Shown: one piece after another, positions 410 through 59,907 of the stretch
Numbering within the stretch: position 1 is the stretch's first letter
How the letters are laid out: each line of letters begins with the position of its first letter
Assembly: GCA_013265495.1 (NCBI GenBank)
Contig: MU058226.1
Span: 22,741 to 86,740 of the forward strand
DNA: 64,000 bases
Source of the DNA: Vicugna vicugna
Lineage: Eukaryota
Reading direction: 5' to 3'
Notes under the pieces: model-generated
Told to the model about the DNA's origin: nothing
The model's database searches: none
Seen by the model: only the letters and a program-made list of their open reading frames with translations
Translations under genes and position numbers: made by a program

Positions 410-3400
410 GTGAGCAGTGCCAGCTTCGGGACTTCTGCTCAGCCAACCCCTGCATCAACGGAGGGGTGTGTCTGACCACCTACCCCCAGATCCAGTGCCG
501 CTGCCCACCTGGTTTCGAGGGCCATGCCTGCGAACATGACATCAACGAGTGTTTCCTGGACCCAGGACCCTGCCCCAAGGGCACGTCCTGCCACAACACC
601 CTGGGGTCCTTCCAGTGTCTCTGCCCCACCGGGCGGGAGGGGCCACGCTGTAAGCTCCAGCCAGGACCCTGCCCCACCAGCGGCTGTCTCAATGGGGGCA
701 CCTGTCAGCTGGTTCCAGGGAGAGACTCCACCTTCCACCTCTGCCTGTGTCCCCCAGGTGCGTCCTCACAGGGCTCTTCTGGGCACCGAGGTGGTCTCCC
801 GTGGGTCCCCTTTCTCAGCTGATCACATGACCCTGACAGGTTTCACAGGCCCAAGCTGTGAGGTGAATCCAGATGACTGTGTGGGGCACCAGTGTCAGAA
901 CGGGGGCACTTGCCAGGATGGGCTGGCCACCTACACCTGCCTCTGCCCAGAGGCCTGGACAGGTGAGTCATTGAAGCCAAGTCGATGGCACCAGTGGCCC
1001 AGACGGTCGTCCCTTGTTCTCCCCTCCCCACAGGGCCCCAGCTCCAGCACCCGTCCCCTTCCCACCCCCTGCAGGCTGGGATTGCTCTGAAGATGTGGAT
1101 GAATGTGAGGCTCGGGGTCCTCCTCTCTGTAAAAATGGAGGGACCTGCCAGAACTCAGCTGGCAGCTTTCACTGTGTGTGCGTCAGCGGCTGGGGAGGCA
1201 CGAGCTGTGAGGAGAACCTGGACGACTGTGCTGCAGCCACCTGCGCCCCAGGATCCACCTGCATCGACCGTGTGGGCTCCTTCTCCTGCCTCTGCCCACC
1301 TGGCCGCACAGGTGTGGCGTGGGGGGCACAGGGAGGTGGGAGATGGGGATGGCACGTGAGCAAAGCACGAGGAGGGCAGCTGGGGGCTTCAAGCAGCCTC
1401 TGAGAGCCTCGCCCACCTGCCCTCCAGGCCTCATGGGGGGTGGGAGGTGGGGATGGCACGTGAGCAAAGCACGAGGAGGGCAGCTGGGGGCTTCAAGCAG
1501 CCTCTGAGAGCCTCGCCCACCTGCCCTCCAGGCCTCCTGTGCCACATGGAGGACATGTGTCTGAGCCGGCCGTGCCACGGGGAAGCCCAGTGCAGCACAA
1601 ACCCCCTGACGGGCTCCACTCTCTGCCTGTGTCAGCCTGGCTACACCGGGCCCACCTGCCACCAGGACCTGGACGAGTGTCAGATGGGTGAGGCACCCCT
1701 CATCAGACCCTCTCTGAGCCCCAGACAGGCTCTGCACTGAAGAGAGAAACAGGCAAATTGCTTTTCAAATTAAAAACATAAACATCTCCTCTTTCCTGAA
1801 TTTGTCCAGATTTGGCATCTCTTCCCTACACAGTCTTTTCACCAACGCTCAGCCCTCCAGGCCCCAATGAGTCCTTCGCCTTCTTAAAGACACAAGCCCT
1901 TTCCCCACTTGGGTCTCGTCTGCCACAAACAGACCCCTCATAGTGTCCCTGCCAGTCTGGCCTCCTTGCCCTCCCGCCCCGACCCCTGTGGACCCCTGGT
2001 TCTTCTCTCCCTGCAGCCCAGCAAGGCCCCAGTCCCTGTGAACATGGCGGCTCCTGCTTCAACACGCCCGGCTCCTTTGAGTGCCTCTGTCCCCCTGGCT
2101 ACACGGGATCCCGCTGCGAGGCTGATCACAATGAGTGCCTGTCCCAGCCCTGCCACCCGGGCAGCACCTGCCTGGACTTGCTCGCCACCTTCCACTGCCT
2201 CTGCCCACCAGGTACCAGCAGAATGGGGCCTCGGGTAGAGGAGACAGGGCACTAACCCACGGGGTGTGACCTCTCTGGAGCCTAGATAGCCTCAGGTCAG
2301 TTGGGGTCAGTTACCAAAGAATGTTTCTCCTCCTCTCCCCACCCCCAGGTGAAAACTCTGGAGACCGATAGCCCCTAAGAGAAGGGCGGCCACAGACGTA
2401 GTGAGGTTGTGCACTGCTCTACTCTTGGGGGAAGAGGACGTATTCACTTCAAAGTCATTAAGGGTGCACAGCCTGGTCCATTGGACCCAGAGGCCCATCA
2501 GGGGAAAACAGAATAGCGGTTAACAACTTTTCACGCTGCAGCCTCTGCTCATGCCAATCCAGAATGTTCCTTCTAATCACAGGAACTCTCTCCTGGAGAG
2601 ATCAAGAGTAAACCCTTAAAACCCCAAGGGCGTGTGTGCTTGAATTTGGTACAACAGGAAAGAATGCTGCAAGGCTGCGCCTCCGTACAAGTTAGTGTTA
2701 AGAGGGGAATTATCTCCCCAGGGAGACAGCAACAGAGCCAATATCAAGGAGCTGAATGAAACCAGAGAAATAACAGCTTACTCTGTGCCAGGTATTGCCT
2801 GAGCCTCTTACACGCATTATCTAATCTTGACAATAACCCTATGAGGTCAACATCGTTACTATGCCCATTTTATAAATGAAGAAACTGACTTGTCCAAGGT
2901 TGCCCAGCTAGCAAGTGGCAGAGCCAGGATTCAAACCCAGGGTTTTGATAGTTTTAACCACTGCACTATACAGCCTTTCTATGCTGAGAGCATCCAACGA
3001 AAAATGCTGGGAAAACTACCCAGTAGTCCAAGGGACAAGGTTGTAGATAACACGGAGCTTCAGAGGCAGGCTCCCCAAGCAAGAAGAGGGAGGCGACTGA
3101 GGTCCAGAGGCTGGTCCAGCTTCAGTTCAGGGTGAGACAGTGGAGACCAGGATGAGGCCAAAGACACAGGACAAATATGGGAGCAACACAGCTTCCCAGA
3201 TGCCCTTCAAATGCCCACCTTGGGGATCCCTGGTCTCCCTGGCACAGAGGCCTGTCCAGGTAGAACAAGAGGAGTAAGCCACCTCCAAGTAGATGCTCAT
3301 TTGTCACACTGGCACCTCGAGAACCTGCCGGGGCTGATCAGCTACCCTTCCCCCCATCCCGGGTGAGCCCTGCCTTCTGTGCACAGAGGAATAGCCCCAA

Positions 3401-15400: not shown

Positions 15401-18400
15401 TATGATCAGAAGCAATGAGAAATGCTATTGCAGAAGCTGAAGACAAGAAAGGTGAGGGAGGAGGAAGGCTGCTGGAAATCTTAGAGACCCTGAAGGTTCT
15501 CTACCCACCCACCCTCTTCCTTCCAGGGCACTGAAACCAGAGGCAGAAGTTGATGAGGATGGAGTTGTGATGTGCTCAGGCCCCGAGGAAGGAGAGGAGG
15601 TGGGCCAGGTGAAGGCACTGGGGCAGGAATGGTCCCAAGGTGATGGAAGGGTTGAAGAGAAAAGTCAACGCCCCTTCACTGATCCTTGCTCTGATCCCCA
15701 AGGCTGAAGAAATGGCCTCACCTTCCAAGTGCCAGCTCTGGCCTCTAAGTGGTGACTGTCAGGAGCTCCCCCAGGCAGCCATGCTGACTCCTCCCCAGGA
15801 ATCTGAACTGGACGTCCCTGACGTGGACACCCGTGGACCTGGTATGTATGCAACTCAGACCAAGAAAATGAAAACTCCCTCTGACCCTTTTAGAATCAGA
15901 AAACCCTTTGCTATCAGAACTGGAGAAACTAATGTTAGAGTTAGTGTTTTAGAGCAATCATTCTCAGACAGAAGAATCGGCATCACCAGGGAAATTGTTA
16001 GAAATACAAATTCTCAGGCTCCACTCCACAGCTACTGATTCAGAAATTCAAAATACTGACAAGCCCTGCAGGTGAGTCTGATCCAGGACTCAAGTTTGAG
16101 AACCATTGCCTTAGGGTGAGAGTACTATGGCCTGTTGCTTCCTTTTACAAATCAGGAAACTGAAGTCCAGAGAAAAGGAAAGTCATTTGATTAAAGCCAC
16201 ACAAAATTGTGAGCCCAAGCTGGGTTTCCCTACACCTCAGGCCGTGATTTTCCCTGAGCCTCCGTGTTCTCCCCTCCCCCAGTTATGTCCTTTTGATTGA
16301 TTTGTCTCCCATTCCTCATGTCTCTTACACACAGATGGGGTAACACCCCTGATGTCAGCAGTCTGCTGTGGGGGAGTGGAGTCCAGGACCTATCAGGGGA
16401 CATGGCTGGGAAGCCCTGAGCCCTGGGAACCTCTGCTGGGTGGAGGGGCCTGTCCCCAGGTTCACACCTTGGGCACTGGGGAGACTCCCCTGCACCTAGC
16501 TGCCCGATTCTCCAGACCAACCGCTGCCCGCCGCCTCCTTGAGGCAGGAGCTAACCCCAACCAGCCTGACCGGGCAGGGCGCACCCCTCTTCACACCGCT
16601 GTGGCTGCTGATGCCCGGGAGGTTTGCCAGGTCAGTCAGTGTACAATGGAGCCGCTAAAGGAAACGGGGCAAACTTGCAACTAAAGTCAGGCAAAAGCAT
16701 CCTCAAGGGTTTGGCGGAGGAAGGTGATGTGAGATTGGGGACTGAAAGGGAAACAAGAACAGATGGTTGAATACGGACTGGGGGGTGGTTAACAGTGTGA
16801 TAAACCTTAGCTAGAAGTCCAGATATACCAAGGATCACTGGTCCTCTCTGCATCCCCTAGCTCTTACTCCGCAGCAGACAGACCTTAGTGGATGCACGGA
16901 CAGAGGATGGGACCACAGCCCTGATGCTGGCTGCCAGGCTGGCTGTTGAGGACCTGGTTGAAGAACTGATTGCAGCCAAAGCAGATGTGGGGGCCAAAGA
17001 TAAATGGGGTATGGATCTGGGGAAGCTGATGTTGTGCTATAAAGTTGAGCAAATGGGGCGTAAGACGCCAAGGAGGGGAGCAGCAGAGGGACCAGCTGGA
17101 GGCTGGGGCATTCCCTCCCACTCTGCTGTGAGGGTGGTAAACCTGCAGTGCGGTGGCAGTACGCAGAACGTGAGTCTTCCTCACCATCCTCAAAAACACA
17201 CACACTGCTCTAGTCCACTGGGAACTACGATGCGGGAAATGTCTGAGAAGGGGGAACGGTCTCGTGGGAGGGAGGTGGTCTGCCGGTCCCACCGACCCCA
17301 GAACAATGCCCCATTGTCCCTCCCGCGCGCCGGTGACGTCACCAGGGGCAACGCTTCCTGCAGGCCGGCGGTCACCCGGGCAACGCTTCCGCTTTTGAGG
17401 TACCCGGCAGGCCGAATAGCCCTTCCCCCAAGACCAGAATCCGTGGGAAACAGGAACCCAGGCGACTGGCCCCCAGCCTCCGGGTTAACAACCTCCCACG
17501 TCGTCCCCTAGGAAAAACCGCGCTGCACTGGGCCGCCGCCGTGAACAACGCCAGGGCCGCCCGCTCCCTTCTCCAGGCCGGAGCCGATAAAGACGCACAG
17601 GATGGCAGGGTTAGACCGGGTAGAGGGCTCCCCGCAATAAAACGGGCCAGGAGAAGTGGAACGCGCGGGAACTCCGCAAAACCTGAAGGGGGAGGGGCCA
17701 GCGGTCGTGCAGAAGGAGGGCCAGCCCTGTGGGGCGTGGCCTTCCCTGACCTCGCCCCCTGGTTGTTTCCTCCCGCGCAGGAGCAGACGCCGCTGTTCCT
17801 GGCGGCCCGGGAAGGGGCAGTGGAGGTAGCCCAGCTGCTGCTGGAGCTGGGGGCGGCCCGAGGGCTGCGGGACCAGGCCGGGCTAGCGCCCGGGGACATC
17901 GCTCGCCAGCGAAACCACTGGGATCTGCTGACGTTGCTGGAAGGGGCGGGACCACTGGAGGCGCGTCACAAAGCCACGCCGGGCCGCGAGGTCGGCGCTT
18001 ACCAGCGCGCGAGAACTGCGTCGGGAAGCGTGCCCCCGCGCGGGGGCGGGGCTCTGCCGCGCTGCCGGACGCTGTCGGCCGGAGCCTGTCCGCAAGCTCG
18101 GACTTTGTCCGTAGACTTGGCCGCGCGTGGGGGCGGGGCCTATTCGCACAGCCGGAGCCTATCGAAAGGAGCAGCAGGAGGCGGCCCGCCCCTCCGCGGC
18201 CGTAGGTTTTCAACAGGCATGCGCGGGCCTCGGCCCAACCCTGCAATAGAACGAGGAAGATCCGGGGTCGCGGCCGGGAGCGGGGGTGTGGCCTCAGCTG
18301 ATGACTGGCCCTGCGATTGGGTGGCCCTAGGAGCCTGCGGCCCCGCCTCCAACACTCCAATCCCGCCTCCCTGCCTTACTCCGTCCCCGGAGCGGGGATC

Positions 18401-22706: not shown

Positions 22707-26570
<3,864 letters not shown>

Positions 26571-28659: not shown

Positions 28660-31564
28660 ATGGTAGCAGCTGGAGCCTGGGTGCTGGTCCTCGGTCTGTG
28701 GGGTGAGCCACTCCCCACACACTGATCCTCCAGGCAGAAAGCACTCTGCCCCTCTCCCCAGACCTCCCCACAACTTTCTGGGAACCTGGGTACTGCTTTC
28801 CAGTCTCCCTCATCCACCCTGTTCTAGTCTTACTAGCTCCCATCTCCCTTCCTGCCCCTCTATCGTGGTGCTGTCTCCCAGGGGCAGTAGTAGGGGATCG
28901 AAACATCACAGCCCGGATTGGGAAGCCACTGGTGCTGAACTGTAAGGGGGCCCCCAAGAAACCACCCCAGCAGCTGGAATGGAAACTGGTAAGTGGGGCT
29001 CCTGTCGCAGTCTCCCCATTTCCAGGGAGATGGGTGACGATTCACATCCCCTCCTCCCCACCTGTCTGCCTTGTGAGTCCTTTCCTGAAGGGCTTGTTCT
29101 GCTCCCCAGAACACAGGCCGGACAGAAGCTTGGAAGGTCTTATCTCCCCAGGGAGGGCCCTGGGATAGTGTGGCCCGTGTCCTCTCCAACGGCTCCCTCC
29201 TCCTGCCAGCTGTTGGGATCCAGGATGAGGGGACCTTCCGGTGCCGGGCAACGAGCCGGCATGGAAAGGAGACCAAGTCCAACTACCGAGTCCGAGTCTA
29301 CCGTAAGGTTCCAGGGCCTTCCTCAAGGCCCACCTCTCATCTAAGGAAAAGCCTTCTACCCCAGCCCTTGACTCCTTGGCCCTGGCACGTGAGACCCTGA
29401 TTCAGCTGCACCCCCTATTCCCGCACCCGGGGTGTGTGACTCTTCAAAGCTGCAAACAACCTCTGATTGGAATTTTCCCTCCTTCAGAGATTCCTGGGAA
29501 GCCAGAAATTGTTGATCCTGCCTCCGAACTCATGGCTGGTGTTCCCAGTAAGGTAGTGGAAGAAAAGGGGAGGCATAGGAAGGGGTGCTGAGGATAGGAG
29601 GGGGTGTAGCTGTGTGTATGTGTATGGAATCTTTTATTTTCCTTTTTATTTTCTCTTGGGGGTGGGGGAGGTAATTCAGTTTATTTGTTATTTCCGCTTT
29701 AATGGAGGCACTGGGGATTGAACCCAGGACCCCGTGTGAGCTAAGTGCACACTTTACCACTTAGCTATACCTTTCCCCTGTGATTCTCTTATTTTCAAAG
29801 ATGATGAGGTGTTTTTCCCCAGGTGGGGACATGTGTGTCCGAGGGGGGCTACCCTGCAGGGACTCTTAGCTGGCACTTGGATGGGAAAACCCTGACACCT
29901 GATGGCAAAGGTGAGTCCCAAGGTCCCCCCTCCTGGCTGCCTTCTTTTTGACCCCTCCCCCAGCCCCCCTGGAATGTCTTGCCTTGTTCTCCACCCACTG
30001 TAGGAGTGTCTGTGAAGGAAGAGACCAGGAGACACCCTGAGACGGGGCTTTTCACACTCCATTCAGAGCTGATGGTGACCCCAGCCCAGGGAGGAGCTCC
30101 CCGCCCCTCCTTCTCCTGCAGCTTCAGCCCTGGCCTTCCCCGGCGCCGAGCCCTGCACACGGCCCCCATCCAGCTCAGCGTCTTGGGTGAGAGCAGAGGT
30201 GGGGAGGGCCCCAAGCCTGGGTGAGCACATGTCAGAAGTATGACCCTCAGGGAAGGGAGGGTTTAGCCAATGGATGGTAGGATGGTCGCTGCGACCACAC
30301 ACAGGTGACTCTCAACCCCCAGAGCCTGTACCACTGGAGGAGGTCCAGCTGGTGGTAGAGCCAGAAGGTGGAGCAGTAGCTCCCGGTGGTACCGTGACCC
30401 TGACCTGTGAAGCCCCTGCCCAGCCCCCGCCTCAAATCCACTGGATCAAGGATGTGAGTGACCTGGAGAGGGGACTGGGAGGTAGAGGGATACATTAATT
30501 GGCAAGGAGGAGGGCAGAGGGCTCATGGAGAGAGAGGCAGGTGGGGAGCTGGGGAAGATGAGGGTGTCTGAGGATGTGGAGGCAGCGGCAGGAGTATGGG
30601 GTGTATGGACAGGGGTTTTGATTGTTCCCTGTCCCCCTTTCCCCGCCAGGGTATGCCCCTGCCCCTCCCCCCCAGCCCTGTGCTGCTCCTCCCTGAGGTC
30701 GGGCCTGAGGACCAGGGAACCTACAGCTGCGTGGCCACCCATCCCAGCCACGGGCCCCAGGAGAGCCGTGCTGTCAGCATCAGCATTACTGGTGAGAAGA
30801 CCTCTCTCCAAATCCCAGGGATCCTGAGGGACAGTGCAGGCTCCAGTTCCCTTCTCCATTCTGGTACGGTCCCCAGGGGCCACCCCACACTTCCCTCAGT
30901 GCAGCCACACCCAGGCCTCCTCTGCCTGACCCAGACTGTAACCAGAAAACGGCCCAGCCTGTCCCCTCTCCTCTGAACTGACCTAAGAAAGGAAAAGACC
31001 CCACTGGGGCTCCCACTGAATAGCCCACTCTCAAACTGAAGACTTTCTTTCTGACTTTGTTTTCTAGAAACAGGCGAAGAGGGACCAACTGCAGGTGAGG
31101 TGCTGGATAAGGTCAGAGAGAAGCAGACAGACTTCAGTGTCACTGAGGGGATGGTCGAGGAGAAAGGAGTTGTGAGTAGGGGGCTGTGCCCTCAATTCTC
31201 CCCATCTTGCTACAGGCTCTGTGGCAGAGCCAGGGCTGGGAACTCTAGCCCTGGCCCTGGGGATCCTGGGAGGCCTGGGGACAGCTGCCCTGCTCATTGG
31301 GGTCATTGTGTGGCACAGGCGGCAACGCAGAGGAGAGGAGAGGTGAGTGGGAAAAGCCAGACGCCTCAGACGGAGGGCTTCCAGGCAGCAAGGAGGGATG
31401 TGGGGGGAGGAATGATGGAGCGCCAGAAACCATGTGCAGGACTCTACCCAATCCTCCTCCCCAGGAAGGCCCCAGAAAACCAGGAGGAGGAAGAGGAGGA
31501 GCGTGCAGAACTGAATCAGCAGGAGGAGCCCGAGGCAGCGGAGAGCAGTGCCGGAGGGCCTTGA
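28660..31564 (+). CDS. AGER: Advanced glycosylation end-product specific receptor (RAGE), 401 aa
   Basis: Exons 28660-28702, 28882-28988, 29110-29302, 29488-29552, 29823-29910, 30004-30186, 30323-30453, 30650-30791, 31068-31094, 31216-31342, 31465-31564 = 1206 nt; signal peptide, V-C1-C2 Ig domains (NITARIGKPLVLNCKGAPKKPPQQLEWKL), TM (LALALGILGGLGTAALLIGVIVW) and acidic tail. Confidence 0.97.
29631..29778 (-). mobile_element. tRNA-derived SINE (camelid-type) in AGER intron 4
   Basis: Minus strand reads GGGGAAAGGTATAGCTAAGTGGTAAAG...GTCCTGGGTTCAATCCCCAGTGCCTCC...AATAAACTGAATTACCTCCCCC plus an A-rich tail; Pol III A and B boxes; similar to 50907-51060. Confidence 0.85.
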
Positions 31565-40943: not shown

Positions 40944-43130
40944 ATGGAGCTGTGGCCAGGGGCATGGACTCTGCTGCTGCTGCTCTTCCTGCTGCTGCTC
41001 TTCCTGCTGCCCATTCTATGGTTCTGCAGCCCCAGTGCCAAGTACTTCTTCAAGATGGCCTTCTACAATGGCTGGATCCTCTTCCTGGCTGTGCTTGCCA
41101 TCCCCGTGTGCGCCGTGCGAGGGCGCAACGTGGAGAACATGAAGTGAGGGTCGGAGTGTTGGGTGATGAGGGAGCCTAAGTGTCATGAGTGAGTGTGGAT
41201 GGGGAGGGTATTGGATGTGGAGACACTGAGACAGCCCAGGGACAAGGAGGAGGAGAAGATGCAAAGATGCCCAGAAAGGCGGTGGTGGGTAGGGGCTGAG
41301 GGGAGGTGAGGCATGCAGGTGGATGTCAGCGGATGCCGCTGGAACCCTCTTCCCTGACCCCGCAGGATCTTGCGTCTGATGATGCTCCACATCAAGTACC
41401 TGTATGGGATCCGAGTGGAGGTGCGAGGGGCTCACCACTTCCCTCCCTCCCAGCCCTACGTTGTCGTCTCCAACCACCAGAGCTCCCTGGACCTGCTTGG
41501 TGAGCAGCCTCCCCTAGCCATGCCCGTCCTCCTGGAACCTTCCCCGGGATCTCATCCCCCAGAGGTCCTCAAGCCTCCCTCACCTGGGATGTTGCACCCT
41601 TGCTCCCTCCCCAGGCCTCTTTCCCTGGAGTAGAGCTGCCCTCATAAGCAGGATAATAGACCATTAGTTGCCCTTTCTTCCTTTCTGGGGCTTCCCTGCC
41701 CCCTCCCCTCAGTCTGCCTCTTCCTTTATCTCCAGTCCCTGGTAGTGTGGGTGATGACCTGGGTGAAGTAGGCTGCTTCCTGTGACACTCTGGTCCTTAC
41801 CTCACCCCCACCTCTGCCCTAGGGATGATGGAGGTACTGCCAGGGCGCTGTGTGCCCATTGCCAAGCGTGAGCTACTGTGGGCTGGCTCTGCCGGGCTGG
41901 CCTGCTGGCTGGCAGGAGTCATCTTCATTGACCGGAAGCGCACTGGGGATGCCATCAGTGTCATGTCTGAGGTCGCCCAGACCCTGCTCACACAGGACGT
42001 GAGTCACCCTGGGGAACTGGAGGGTTAAGGAGTAGAACAGTTGTAAATAAACTGATGTGCAGGGCCAGAAGACCTCAGAAGTCCCATTACAGCATCACAG
42101 CCATTTTCTGACCCCTTCCAGGTACGAGTCTGGGTTTTTCCTGAGGGCACAAGAAACCACAATGGCTCCATGCTGCCCTTCAAACGTGGCGCCTTCCACC
42201 TTGCAGTGCAGGCCCAGGTGATTACTACTTCCCCTTCTACTGCTGCGCCCCCAGCCCCCACCATCCCTTCCTCTCTTGGCAGAGGTTTGTCGTGGGAGCC
42301 TCGGAAGGGAGCTGTGGGCTGATCGCTTTTCGCCTTCCTCAGGTTCCCATCGTCCCCATAGTCATGTCCTCCTATCAAGACTTCTACTGCAAGAAGGAGC
42401 GCCGCTTCACTTCAGGTGAGGGGTCTGAGCAGATCCGGGATTGGGGGCTGGCCAGGAAGGCCTGGGAGAGGCTAGAGGGACGTCCCCAGGAGGCAGGAGG
42501 TTCAGGCAGTGTCAGAACTGTGAGATGTCCACAGGCTCATCTAGTGTGACATCAGCCAGTAAGTATTTGTGAAGCACCCACTGCATCCTGCTAGGTGGGT
42601 AACGCTTGGTCCCTCCAAGAGAGGCCACTACTGTCTAGCGGGAGGGATAAAGCCTACATGTGCCAAGCTGTAATATTCGGCAGTAAACGCTAAACCTAGA
42701 CAGCAGGGGCTGGCAGGGCACTGAGGTGTCTGGACTGGGGTTTGAGGAAGACTTTGTACAGGAGGACCTCGGAGAACAGGTGGCAGCTGGTGAGCAGAGG
42801 GCAGCTGTCTAGGGCAAGGGGAAGAGAACTGAAAGATTGAGGAGGAGAGTAAGTAGCAGGAGCGCTCAGAAACCAGGCTCCGCCTGTGATCAAAGTCCCA
42901 GTAGATAGGCCGCAATGGTGCTCACCGCCCCCTACCCCCATCCAGGGCGATGTCAGGTCCGGGTGCTGCCCCCAGTGCCCACAGAAGGGCTGACACCAGA
43001 CGACGTCCCGGCGCTGGCTGACAGAGTCCGGCACTCCATGCTCACCGTTTTCCGGGAAATCTCCACCGATGGCAGGGGTGGTGGTGACTATCTGAAGAAG
43101 CCTGGAGGGGTGGGCGAGGCCCGGCTCTGA
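40944..43130 (+). CDS. AGPAT1: 1-acylglycerol-3-phosphate O-acyltransferase 1 (LPAAT-alpha), 287 aa
   Basis: Exons 40944-41143, 41366-41499, 41823-41998, 42122-42217, 42343-42415, 42946-43130 = 864 nt; catalytic NHQSSLD, FIDR, FPEGTR and VPIVPIV motifs. Confidence 0.98.
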
Positions 43131-54224: not shown

Positions 54225-57009
54225 GCTCCCGCCTGAGGAGGGGGGGATGGGGGCCTGTGAGAGAGGTGACAACAGCCCCTCCCTTCGGAACAGACGGCTG
54301 GCAATCAAGCCTACCCTGCCGGTTCCCACACCTTGTCACAGAATATCCTACTTTTAACTTCCTCCAGTCCTCTCCCCACAAACGTAGACGCACACCAATG
54401 CGCACCCAAGCCCCGCCCCCAACTCAGCGGGGACTTTATCTCTAGGCCCAGGATCTTCCTAATGCATCATCCTAGCCATGCACGACCGGGGTTTCGCAAG
54501 AAAAGACCCCTGAGCAGCAGCGCAGGCCCCCTTAAGTGTGCAAACTCCCACCTGGCCTTGGTCCGCGAGCCTCGCCCCGCCCGCTGTTTACTTCTCCCCA
54601 GCCTGGAACCCACGTTGGGGAGGGGAAGGGTGTAAGGAAAACGCGCGCAGAGGAATGACGGCCGGGAGGGGAGGCTGCTCGGGGTCGCGCTTAGCCGTCA
54701 CGTCCGGGGCTTTCCCTAGCAACCGTGCCAGCGTCCTCCGCAACTCAGGCCCCAGACAGGAGTGGCAATGGAACAATCCATTGCGCCCTAAGAGCGGGGG
54801 AGGAAATAGGCGGAGCGATCTCTTTAGAGCGGCGGAGAGAGGGAGAAGCAGCAAACATATCCTGGGAACTGAGAGGTGGCCTCTTCAGGCCCTGCGGTAC
54901 CAGCGACCCGGGGGTCCGATTTCTCGGTTGATTCACCCTACTTCCCAATTCAGGCGACCCGCAACGGAACACGGAGCTCTCTCCCCAGGGAGACGCTGGG
55001 GAAACAGACTGGGGAAAGGTAGTCCTCCGCATTTCGTCGTCCGCCAGAGTAGGGCTGAAGGTAGCCCGGGCAGACCCTACCCCCAACCCCTAACCGCCCG
55101 CCCGCCCGCGCCAGGCCTGCATCTTACAACTCTCCATCCTGAAGTGCTTGTAGTGCCCTTGTCTCCAGAGACACGGAGAGTCCTCGAGGTCCCTCGAGAT
55201 AAAAGTGCGGCTTGGCCCAGTTTCTTTTGCCCTACTCTACTCCACTGCCAATATACGACCCACCCCCTGCAAGGGGACGGACGGCCTGTAGGGCCGCGCT
55301 GACTCACCCTCGCTTGGATTCGACCAATTTTTCAAGCTGAGCGAACCTCACAATCCCCCTACCCCCTGAATTTCGAGTTCTTTGTGGGCGGCTCCTTACT
55401 CAGACCTTCCCACCCGAATCGAACTTCTGAACTCCAGGCGTCCCGCACCTCCCCGCCTGTGACCCCTACGGACATCCTGGTGCCTGGGTTAGAGCTTTTA
55501 GTTAGCATTTAAAAACATTTCCCTTGATAAAAGGATTTTGCTGCTTATCAGAACCCCTCCCTCTGTTTACAAGGTCTTTGCCAGTCTAAATCTTCTCCCA
55601 ATAAAACCAATTTGCGCCTGAGTTATGATGATGGAGTGGCGGTAGTGGGGTTAGGGGCTCACACGAACCCCTTAGAAACCAGAACGGCGAGGATGGGGCC
55701 GTAATCTAAATCTCTGGCGCCTGGGACTGGCCCAGGCGAGCTCCTCATTTACACCTCGGTAGTCTCCTCCTGGACTCGGAGCGGAAGGACAGCTGCGGAG
55801 AACGACTGCTTCAGGCGGGTACTGGGAAGTACTAGTCTAAGGGGGGAGGATGGGGTGGGTAATAGCGACTCCGGGTAATAATGTTTTTGCAAAACGCCAA
55901 CGCTGGTAAATCTCGGTAGACTGCTAATCTTCACCTCCCCTCCCCACGTACACGCTCCCGAGATGAAAAGAGCAAAATAAAAAGACTGCAATTACCGCTG
56001 TGGCCCCAGGTCGACTCAGGCAGTGGCGCAGCGTCTCGGCGGGGGTGGTGAGTGGGTGGGATTAAAGGAATGGATCTGAACACTGAGGCCCCTGGAAACT
56101 CTAAGAAGCCCAATAAGCAAGGGGGAGGGGAGAGGGGATAAAGCACGTATTCCCAAACCTAGCTGCTAGCAATGAGCAGTTGATTCATCCCCTCCTCCCA
56201 AAGCGCTTCACCTCCTTCGCCGTGGAGGAAGAAGGTGTCTCTATCCCCTAAGCTTTCTCCAGTCGTCCACCACCACCACCACCACCACCACACCGCAGAC
56301 CTTGCTACCTCCAAACTGCTATGAACTGGAGCCTCTCGGTTTCCCTCCCCATTCATCCCAGGCCAAGGTGGCAGGTCGAGGCCAGAACCCTGGGAACTTT
56401 CCAGGCCATCTCTGGTCTCCGCTATGCAAGCCATTTTCCCTCATACAGTTATCTCTCCTTCAGAGGGAAGAACTATGGCCAAGGTTTGGGAGAAGATCCT
56501 GAGATCTTACAGGGACTCTGAGGGAAGCTGAGAAGGGGGAGGCCTGACTGGTGAACCAGACCCAGAGGGAACTGGGGTATTGAATCCACTGAGCACCTGC
56601 TCGGCTTCCTCTCATAATATAATCACTACAGCCAGTCTTGGAGGGGAAGACTCTAGAGAGTTCTTTCTCCCTCCTTCCTTCCCCTAGTCCCACCCGCCTT
56701 GCCTGGTCTTGCTTGCCTCCCTGTTTCCATGACAACTCCAAAGGAGCCCAAACTGGGGGCTTGAATGCTGGGGTGAGAGGAGGAGAGAGACCAAGCGGGG
56801 GTACGTCTGAAGCACTCCCCCTCCCTTCCCTCGGTCCCTTTAAGCTCCCCCCCCCCGCTTTTCCTCCGCCCCCCGCCGCCACTGTCTTCATCTCTCCATC
56901 TCTGCGCTGCTGCCGGCTGCGCAATCTGCGCACCCAGACTCCGGTGCTAGCCAGGGACCCCGACTCTGGACTCCGGCTGCACGGATCCTGTCCCAGGGAG
57001 ACCGCAGGC

Positions 57010-57010
<1 letters not shown>
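54200..57010. promoter_or_regulatory. CpG-rich divergent promoter and 5' UTR region shared by PPT2 (-) and PRRT1 (+)
   Basis: CpG-dense; CCAAT near 54396, 55247, 55324 and 55607; GC boxes; head-to-head ATGs at 54224 and 57010. Confidence 0.7.
56268..56291. repeat. (CAC)8 trinucleotide repeat upstream of PRRT1
   Basis: Read directly from the sequence. Confidence 0.9.

Positions 57011-59907
<2,897 letters not shown>

Follow-up and report, generated by a model that had tools for sequence, protein, structure and literature searches.

A tandem duplication across an intron-exon boundary places two identical splice acceptors before one NOTCH4 exon in an assembled vicuña sequence

In the stretch of Vicugna vicugna DNA analysed here (64,000 nucleotides of the forward strand of contig MU058226.1; hereafter the window), one NOTCH4 exon is preceded by two copies of its own splice acceptor. 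This raises the question of whether the animal carries both copies and, if so, what the additional acceptor does to the transcript. The window begins inside NOTCH4. The first coding exon is 100% identical to the alpaca RefSeq NOTCH4, and the alpaca-type residue is present at 18 of the 19 covered sites at which the alpaca and wild-camel proteins differ, which marks the source as a South American camelid. A total of 27 NOTCH4 exons, covering alpaca residues 146-1990, could be mapped without a frameshift and with four substitutions relative to the alpaca protein, namely G346S, P541L, K641E and S1929G (at window positions ~1203, 4890, 6126 and 18285, respectively). Given the 27 frameshift-free exons and the four substitutions, NOTCH4 in the window is not a decaying pseudogene. 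Residue 346 is glycine in the alpaca, camel and horse proteins compared, and S1929G is also found in camels. The open reading frames (ORFs) at 18500-60000 presumably belong to the MHC class III neighbours PBX2 (~23040-25000), AGER (~28800-31560), PPT2 (minus strand, ~54000) and PRRT1 (~57000-59300).

Two repeat analyses confirmed that the 104-bp tandem duplication given in the preliminary description is present in the assembled sequence. Tandem Repeats Finder returned a 104-nt array of 2.0 copies with 98% matches at 1331-1536, and a repeat search returned a gap-free alignment of 1331-1434 with 1435-1538 at 97% identity. The duplicated unit is laid out as follows:

1331..1434, forward strand: copy 1 of the unit, with perfect core 1344-1432 and A at 1334 and 1343
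1435..1538, forward strand: copy 2 of the unit, with perfect core 1448-1536 and G at 1438 and 1447
1433..1447, forward strand: junction stretch, which holds the junction-side partner of all three copy differences

The copies differ at 1334/1438 (A/G), 1343/1447 (A/G) and 1433/1537 (A/C) and share a perfect core of 89 nt (1344-1432 = 1448-1536). The unit comprises 97 intron and 7 exon-side nucleotides, and the perfect core 84 and 5, so the extent of ~93 plus 5 nt first proposed did not hold, whereas the duplication itself did. The copies are adjacent and near-identical, each with its own tract and AG, as in a tandem duplication that spans an intron-exon boundary. Dinucleotide runs aside, this is the only exact repeat of at least 25 nt in the 64-kb window, and the duplication is thus not due to chance. 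No gap lies between or beside the copies in the assembled sequence, and the window contains no N, as would also be the case for a filled gap. Elsewhere, Tandem Repeats Finder returned a perfect 15-nt repeat of 2.5 copies at 40974-41010.

The features that bear on splicing are listed below; donors were scored against the U1 consensus.

1075..1311, forward strand: NOTCH4 exon upstream of the duplication (237 nt; alpaca residues 303-382), which we take to be exon 6 by human NOTCH4 numbering
1312..1317, forward strand: 5' splice site CAG/GTGTGG, common to both acceptors, with 6 of 9 matches to the U1 consensus
1400..1427, forward strand: upstream (duplicate) acceptor, with a C-rich tract and AG at 1426-27, out of frame by 104 nt
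1504..1531, forward strand: downstream acceptor, AG at 1530-31, in frame; its context equals that of the upstream acceptor from −84 to +5
1505..1507, forward strand: premature TGA in the reading frame set by the upstream acceptor, with 180 nt left to the next exon junction
1532..1687, forward strand: NOTCH4 exon after the duplication (156 nt; skipping keeps the frame), which we take to be exon 7 by human NOTCH4 numbering
1440..1465, forward strand: weak candidate GT donors inside copy 2, at 1440, 1447 and 1460, with 4, 5 and 6 of 9 U1 matches, respectively

Use of AG 1426-27 would remove a 116-nt intron, add 104 nt and shift the frame, leading to the TGA at 1505-07; use of AG 1530-31 would remove a 220-nt intron and give the intact protein. 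All of these elements, together with the frameshifted peptide, had been put forward in the preliminary description and were reproduced from the sequence. The accompanying claim that intact NOTCH4 comes from the downstream AG alone agrees with the RefSeq NOTCH4 proteins of alpaca, dromedary and wild camel, all of which have the junction made by that AG; these models are annotations of other assemblies and are uninformative with respect to carriers of the duplication. A candidate branch motif for the upstream acceptor, CTGA, was found at 1400 by pattern match only. In combination with the upstream acceptor, the donors in copy 2 could define predicted micro-exons of 12, 19 and 32 nt. The 12-nt micro-exon alone, which uses the weakest donor, is predicted to keep the frame (+4 amino acids).

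The ancestral state of the intron was assessed from read-through proteins of three distant, non-camelid mammals. From these, the orthologous intron appears to be single, with inferred lengths of 106, 91 and 108 nt (P0136, P0142 and P0018, respectively), and the second copy is absent from all three. Thus, the ancestral state is the 116-nt single-copy intron, and the second copy is derived. Two hamster gene models and a rodent-like ORF (P0013, P0018 and P0049 together) run from the upstream exon into this same intron, P0018 crossing the 108-nt intron in frame, and such read-through probably reflects prediction artefacts or retained introns. A further mammalian ORF, P0135, aligns over the repeat; it matches copy 1 at the 1334 site and copy 2 at 1343/1447. 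This pattern, from one distant sequence compared at the protein level, hints weakly that G1447 is old and did not arise by error. The 82-nt NOTCH4 intron at 758-839 has 9 pyrimidines among the 17 positions of its tract, the lowest value among the acceptors compared, and two whale gene models (P0127 and P0133) cross this intron in frame.

The explanation that we favour, tentatively and with somewhat less than even confidence, is that of a young, unfixed and largely silent duplication: the downstream acceptor would be the main one used, and transcripts leaking through the upstream acceptor would be degraded. By this account, the DNA would have broken or undergone a template switch in the G-rich, quadruplex-prone sequence with which a short NOTCH4 intron begins. 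Tandem duplication of the last 97 nt of this intron and the first bases of the following exon would have resulted, the ends being joined without direct-repeat homology and with bases altered at the junction. The sequenced animal would carry the duplication, which would probably be unfixed in South American camelids. Most transcripts would use the downstream AG, proposed to be dominant because it alone precedes a real exon, and a local hairpin possibly covers the upstream tract as well. The minority spliced upstream would acquire a premature stop and be degraded. The net result would be a small, tolerated loss of NOTCH4 mRNA, with no function of its own.

It is quite possible, if on balance doubtful, that the duplication is an assembly artefact and that the animal has one acceptor and a 116-nt intron. 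Here, two contig or read ends with an overlap of ~100 nt, or two haplotypes, would have been joined head to tail at a G-rich spot that is difficult to sequence, and the copy differences would be erroneous or allelic bases introduced there. None of the three differences is farther than 13 nt from an edge of the unit, the other 89 nt being identical, which is consistent with such a join. The chance of this edge clustering is 0.014 with a post hoc threshold, and 0.052 for a 15-nt span anywhere. The differences are more suggestive of the joining event itself, whether biological or computational, than of later drift. The left edge of the unit is overlapped by the following feature:

1321..1348, forward strand: four-run canonical G-quadruplex motif

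Two of the differences are A-to-G changes inside the G-runs at this motif, and G-runs at quadruplex motifs are an error-prone sequencing context; both points speak for an artefact. The window contains 52 canonical quadruplex motifs, and for 7.7% of randomly placed 104-nt duplications such a motif would lie no more than 10 nt from a breakpoint. Direct homology at the junction amounts to one base only, and no local sequence matches the 15-nt junction over more than 8 nt. At a G-rich site, a junction of this kind is predicted both for a repair event and for an assembly join. Another possible source of the junction bases, snap-back copying of the tract, was also considered; the stem core contains two wobble pairs and a 3-nt bulge, and a clean templated copy was rejected on these grounds. 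The idea that the single-copy intron provoked its own duplication by folding back was likewise discarded, as its fold was no better than those of shuffled sequences (z −0.35).

False duplications that arise from haplotypes or read errors are common in assemblies, according to excerpts of PMC9516828. Against an artefact stand the lack of any N or gap in the window, the 27 exons free of indel error, the lack of a second such repeat in 64 kb and, weakly, the agreement of P0135 with G1447.

Public sequencing runs were searched with 179 sampled words from the region 400-2220, and 24 runs were listed. Fourteen of these, from three organisms and seven studies, contained at least half of the words, with shares between 0.93 and 0.97. 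The analysis left out run X20, with a share of 0.04, and rows X21-X24, with 0.00. No listed run exceeded 0.97, including one marked as a possible source. The expected share is 0.974 for a single-copy animal that is otherwise identical, each SNP costing 0.018, and 1.0 for a carrier without other differences if short connected contigs are kept. The best share is therefore that expected for a single-copy animal, as the artefact explanation would have it. In the two available passages on the matter, which differ in wording, Logan is described as dropping short contigs when they are isolated (bioRxiv 10.1101/2024.07.30.605881), so the junction of a homozygous carrier would probably have been retained, which again favours an artefact. 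However, the ceiling of 0.97 fits a carrier with two other SNPs (probability 0.32) as well as it fits runs without the junction (probability 0.33 of missing 5-6 words), and one such variant, G346S, falls within the searched stretch. The word shares argue weakly against a fixed trait and do not separate a rare allele from an artefact. Taken with the identical 89-nt core and the single orthologous introns of 91-108 nt, the absence of any listed run above 0.97 is in keeping with the earlier suggestion that the duplication is young and perhaps polymorphic.

If the duplication is real, the question becomes one of acceptor choice. Because the two acceptors are identical from −84 to +5, local strength cannot decide between them. 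After the upstream AG, five exon bases are followed by G-run-rich intron; the pseudo-exon contains five G-runs, and the real exon two over its initial 104 nt. Exonic G-runs act as silencers, and by analogy the exon content would favour the downstream acceptor. The favoured explanation, with the downstream acceptor dominant, here competes with that of a real hypomorphic allele, in which the upstream acceptor wins a large share by proximity or the 156-nt exon is skipped in frame, the latter being a third possible outcome predicted from the sequence. Either much normal NOTCH4 mRNA would be lost, or the receptor would lack 52 residues across EGF repeats 9-11. We regard such an allele, which the preliminary description had raised, as unlikely, though deserving of consideration.

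In its favour, exons preceded by short introns usually prefer the upstream of two similarly strong acceptors, as in intron-defined events (excerpts of PMC9225289). The NOTCH4 introns in this neighbourhood are short (82, 112, 116/220 and 329 nt), and both candidate introns are below 250 nt, so distance favours the upstream acceptor. With the USH2A duplication c.3812-3_3837dup, exon skipping accounted for 60.9% of 1113 reads and the upstream acceptor for 1.8% (excerpts of PMC11311777), and skipping of the 156-nt exon in NOTCH4 would keep the frame. Notch4 knockout mice are viable and fertile according to the available part of PMC8227657; given that loss of Notch4 is tolerated in mice, a hypomorphic allele could persist. 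By contrast, the downstream acceptor in NOTCH4 retains 84 nt of native context, unlike that in the USH2A duplication. In addition, the closest experimental analogue, the duplicated-acceptor substrate wt14, has a short proximal exon without enhancers and favours the distal site, by 6:1 when splicing is coupled to transcription and by 25:1 when uncoupled (excerpts of PMC1450099).

A premature stop located more than ~50 nt before the last exon junction is a target of nonsense-mediated decay (NMD). The TGA at 1505-07 lies 180 nt before the next junction, with 23 more exons downstream, and the upstream isoform would thus be an NMD target by the usual rule, as for a poison acceptor. The predicted product has ~407 amino acids, and its ninth EGF repeat lacks the last cysteine (the repeats were found by pattern, the seventh being added by eye). 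With the stop in an NMD-target position and the ninth repeat broken, the secreted EGF-only product raised in the preliminary description is unlikely to matter. In searches of a protein collection, none of 23 candidates for junction-crossing products scored, five exact ORF look-ups (three of them controls from outside the junction) all came back empty, and the 13 protein matches listed included no camelid ORF. The collection is also without the control ORF of this locus, and the blank for a truncated product, which would otherwise count against a hypomorphic allele, says little. A metagenome scan with the 156-nt exon yielded 15 loci among 409 pattern matches, at 35-67% identity, and no mammalian NOTCH4; these loci were left out of the analysis.

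The duplication places the C-rich tract of copy 1 only 7 nt before the G-rich start of copy 2, and in the predicted fold these two segments pair, giving the following feature:

1406..1457, forward strand: predicted junction hairpin (−33.8 kcal/mol, z −2.2), not robust in wider folds

The predicted stem is closed by the A of the upstream AG. Over 56-nt spans, folding energies of −33.8 and −18.1 kcal/mol were calculated for the upstream and downstream acceptors, respectively, and the 13 real NOTCH4 acceptors tested, of 27, gave −7.3 to −27.3 kcal/mol, all weaker than the upstream site. The strongest of these, the last NOTCH4 acceptor (17758-17813), is itself a real site at −27.3 kcal/mol over 56 nt, and such energy alone thus does not block a site. 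Both copy-2 bases, G1438 and G1447, are predicted to pair with C bases of the tract, and restoring the copy-1 letters reduces the stability to −25.2 kcal/mol. A comparable gain was obtained with 5 of 21,528 transition pairs in the duplicated 208 nt, with 2 of 105 in the first 15 nt of copy 2 and with 2 of 10 A-to-G pairs in the copy-2 G tract. With 2 of the 10 tract pairs gaining equally, selection on G1438 and G1447 was rejected as an established point; if G1447 is ancestral, just 2.3 kcal/mol is left to explain.

The hairpin was sensitive to the conditions of folding. Shuffled sequences folded as well in 6 of 200 cases in the hairpin window (z −2.2) and in 25 of 200 in a slightly wider window (z −1.3), and the fold of 1300-1580 includes the hairpin, yet with a z of −0.33. 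Across six folding settings, accessibility of the upstream tract relative to the downstream tract was lower in three, equal in one and higher in two, and the hairpin was largely or wholly lost once quadruplexes were allowed. Masking of the upstream tract by the junction hairpin is accordingly described as something that may occur, a lead that is not robust. Neither this hairpin, nor in-frame skipping of the 156-nt exon, nor the signs of an assembly artefact (copy differences gathered at the junction, within a G-run) figured in the preliminary description. That the duplication is real and self-silencing, with the hairpin hiding the duplicate acceptor and G1438 and G1447 kept for tightening the mask, would be a modelled scenario that we consider improbable. 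Were it true, acceptor duplication would generally be tolerated by short introns that are G-rich at the 5' end and C-rich at the 3' end.

We give very little credence to the idea that the upstream acceptor is fixed among South American camelids as a regulated poison site or as the source of a secreted EGF-only decoy, perhaps tied to hypoxia: NOTCH4 is listed among high-altitude candidates, its alpaca coding sequence giving mixed selection signals (NOTCH4 passages of PMC6598621 and again PMC13535496) and a truncated mouse Notch4 transcript is said to retain some regulatory function (available part of PMC8227657), but no run in the three organisms has a share above 0.93-0.97, the zero divergence of the core is no sign of long retention, the stop and the broken ninth EGF repeat count against a product, and the best RNA runs contain 0.49 of the words, fewer than expected if all splicing is distal (0.53) or if the upstream isoform is also made (0.59) (these animals may lack the duplication). 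The altitude signal in those passages comes from tests of the coding sequence, and the duplication is not mentioned in the NOTCH4 passages of the two main texts. The preliminary description had offered a lineage-specific regulated poison acceptor as a possibility; the material searched gave no indication that the site is fixed, conserved or used in RNA, and it is not classed as such, since use, fixation and regulation are without support.

The duplication would, if real, be a natural duplicated-acceptor experiment in an endogenous gene and a possible loss-of-function allele of NOTCH4, itself a candidate gene for hypoxia in camelids. With identical acceptor signals, a preference for either site could then be explained only by distance, exon content or RNA structure. 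As an artefact, the locus would illustrate the need for read support where boundary duplications are met in draft genomes. In either case the kind of variant is already known from human genetics, and the expected gain is modest. No report of the duplication was found in the literature searched, which included the NOTCH4 passages of PMC6598621 and PMC13535496.

Poison exons and acceptors are a means of regulated unproductive splicing. The NOTCH4 site resembles them in that transcripts spliced at the upstream acceptor would meet a premature stop far ahead of the last junction, and differs in that it is without conservation, shown use or regulation. False assembly duplications of the heterotype and homotype kinds likewise consist of near-identical adjacent copies with few differences (excerpts of PMC9516828), whereas the NOTCH4 copies have no gap between them. 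Intron gain by segmental duplication in ATP2A1 (excerpts of PMC3265369) offers a likeness in its new pairings of splice signals, and the copy-2 donors in NOTCH4 could in principle give two introns around a micro-exon; however, these inner donors are weak, and the duplicated piece is mostly intron as opposed to coding sequence. The USH2A duplication is closer, being a small tandem duplication across an acceptor in which the upstream copy leads to a stop and in-frame skipping is an alternative. It copies 3 intron and 26 exon bases (excerpts of PMC11311777), so its second acceptor is without a tract, whereas 97 intron bases are copied in NOTCH4 and both acceptors thus have a full tract and branch region. 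The duplicated 3' splice-site substrates of Reed and Maniatis (1986), as described in excerpts of PMC9225289, and wt14 resemble NOTCH4 in combining a single donor with two identical acceptors, the proximal of which is followed by only a few true exon bases. These substrates were engineered, whereas the NOTCH4 case is genomic and has a 104-nt spacing, a frameshift and a predicted hairpin. By analogy, the NOTCH4 duplication, if real, belongs with the small boundary-spanning duplications known from human genetics and would work like a duplicated-acceptor substrate.
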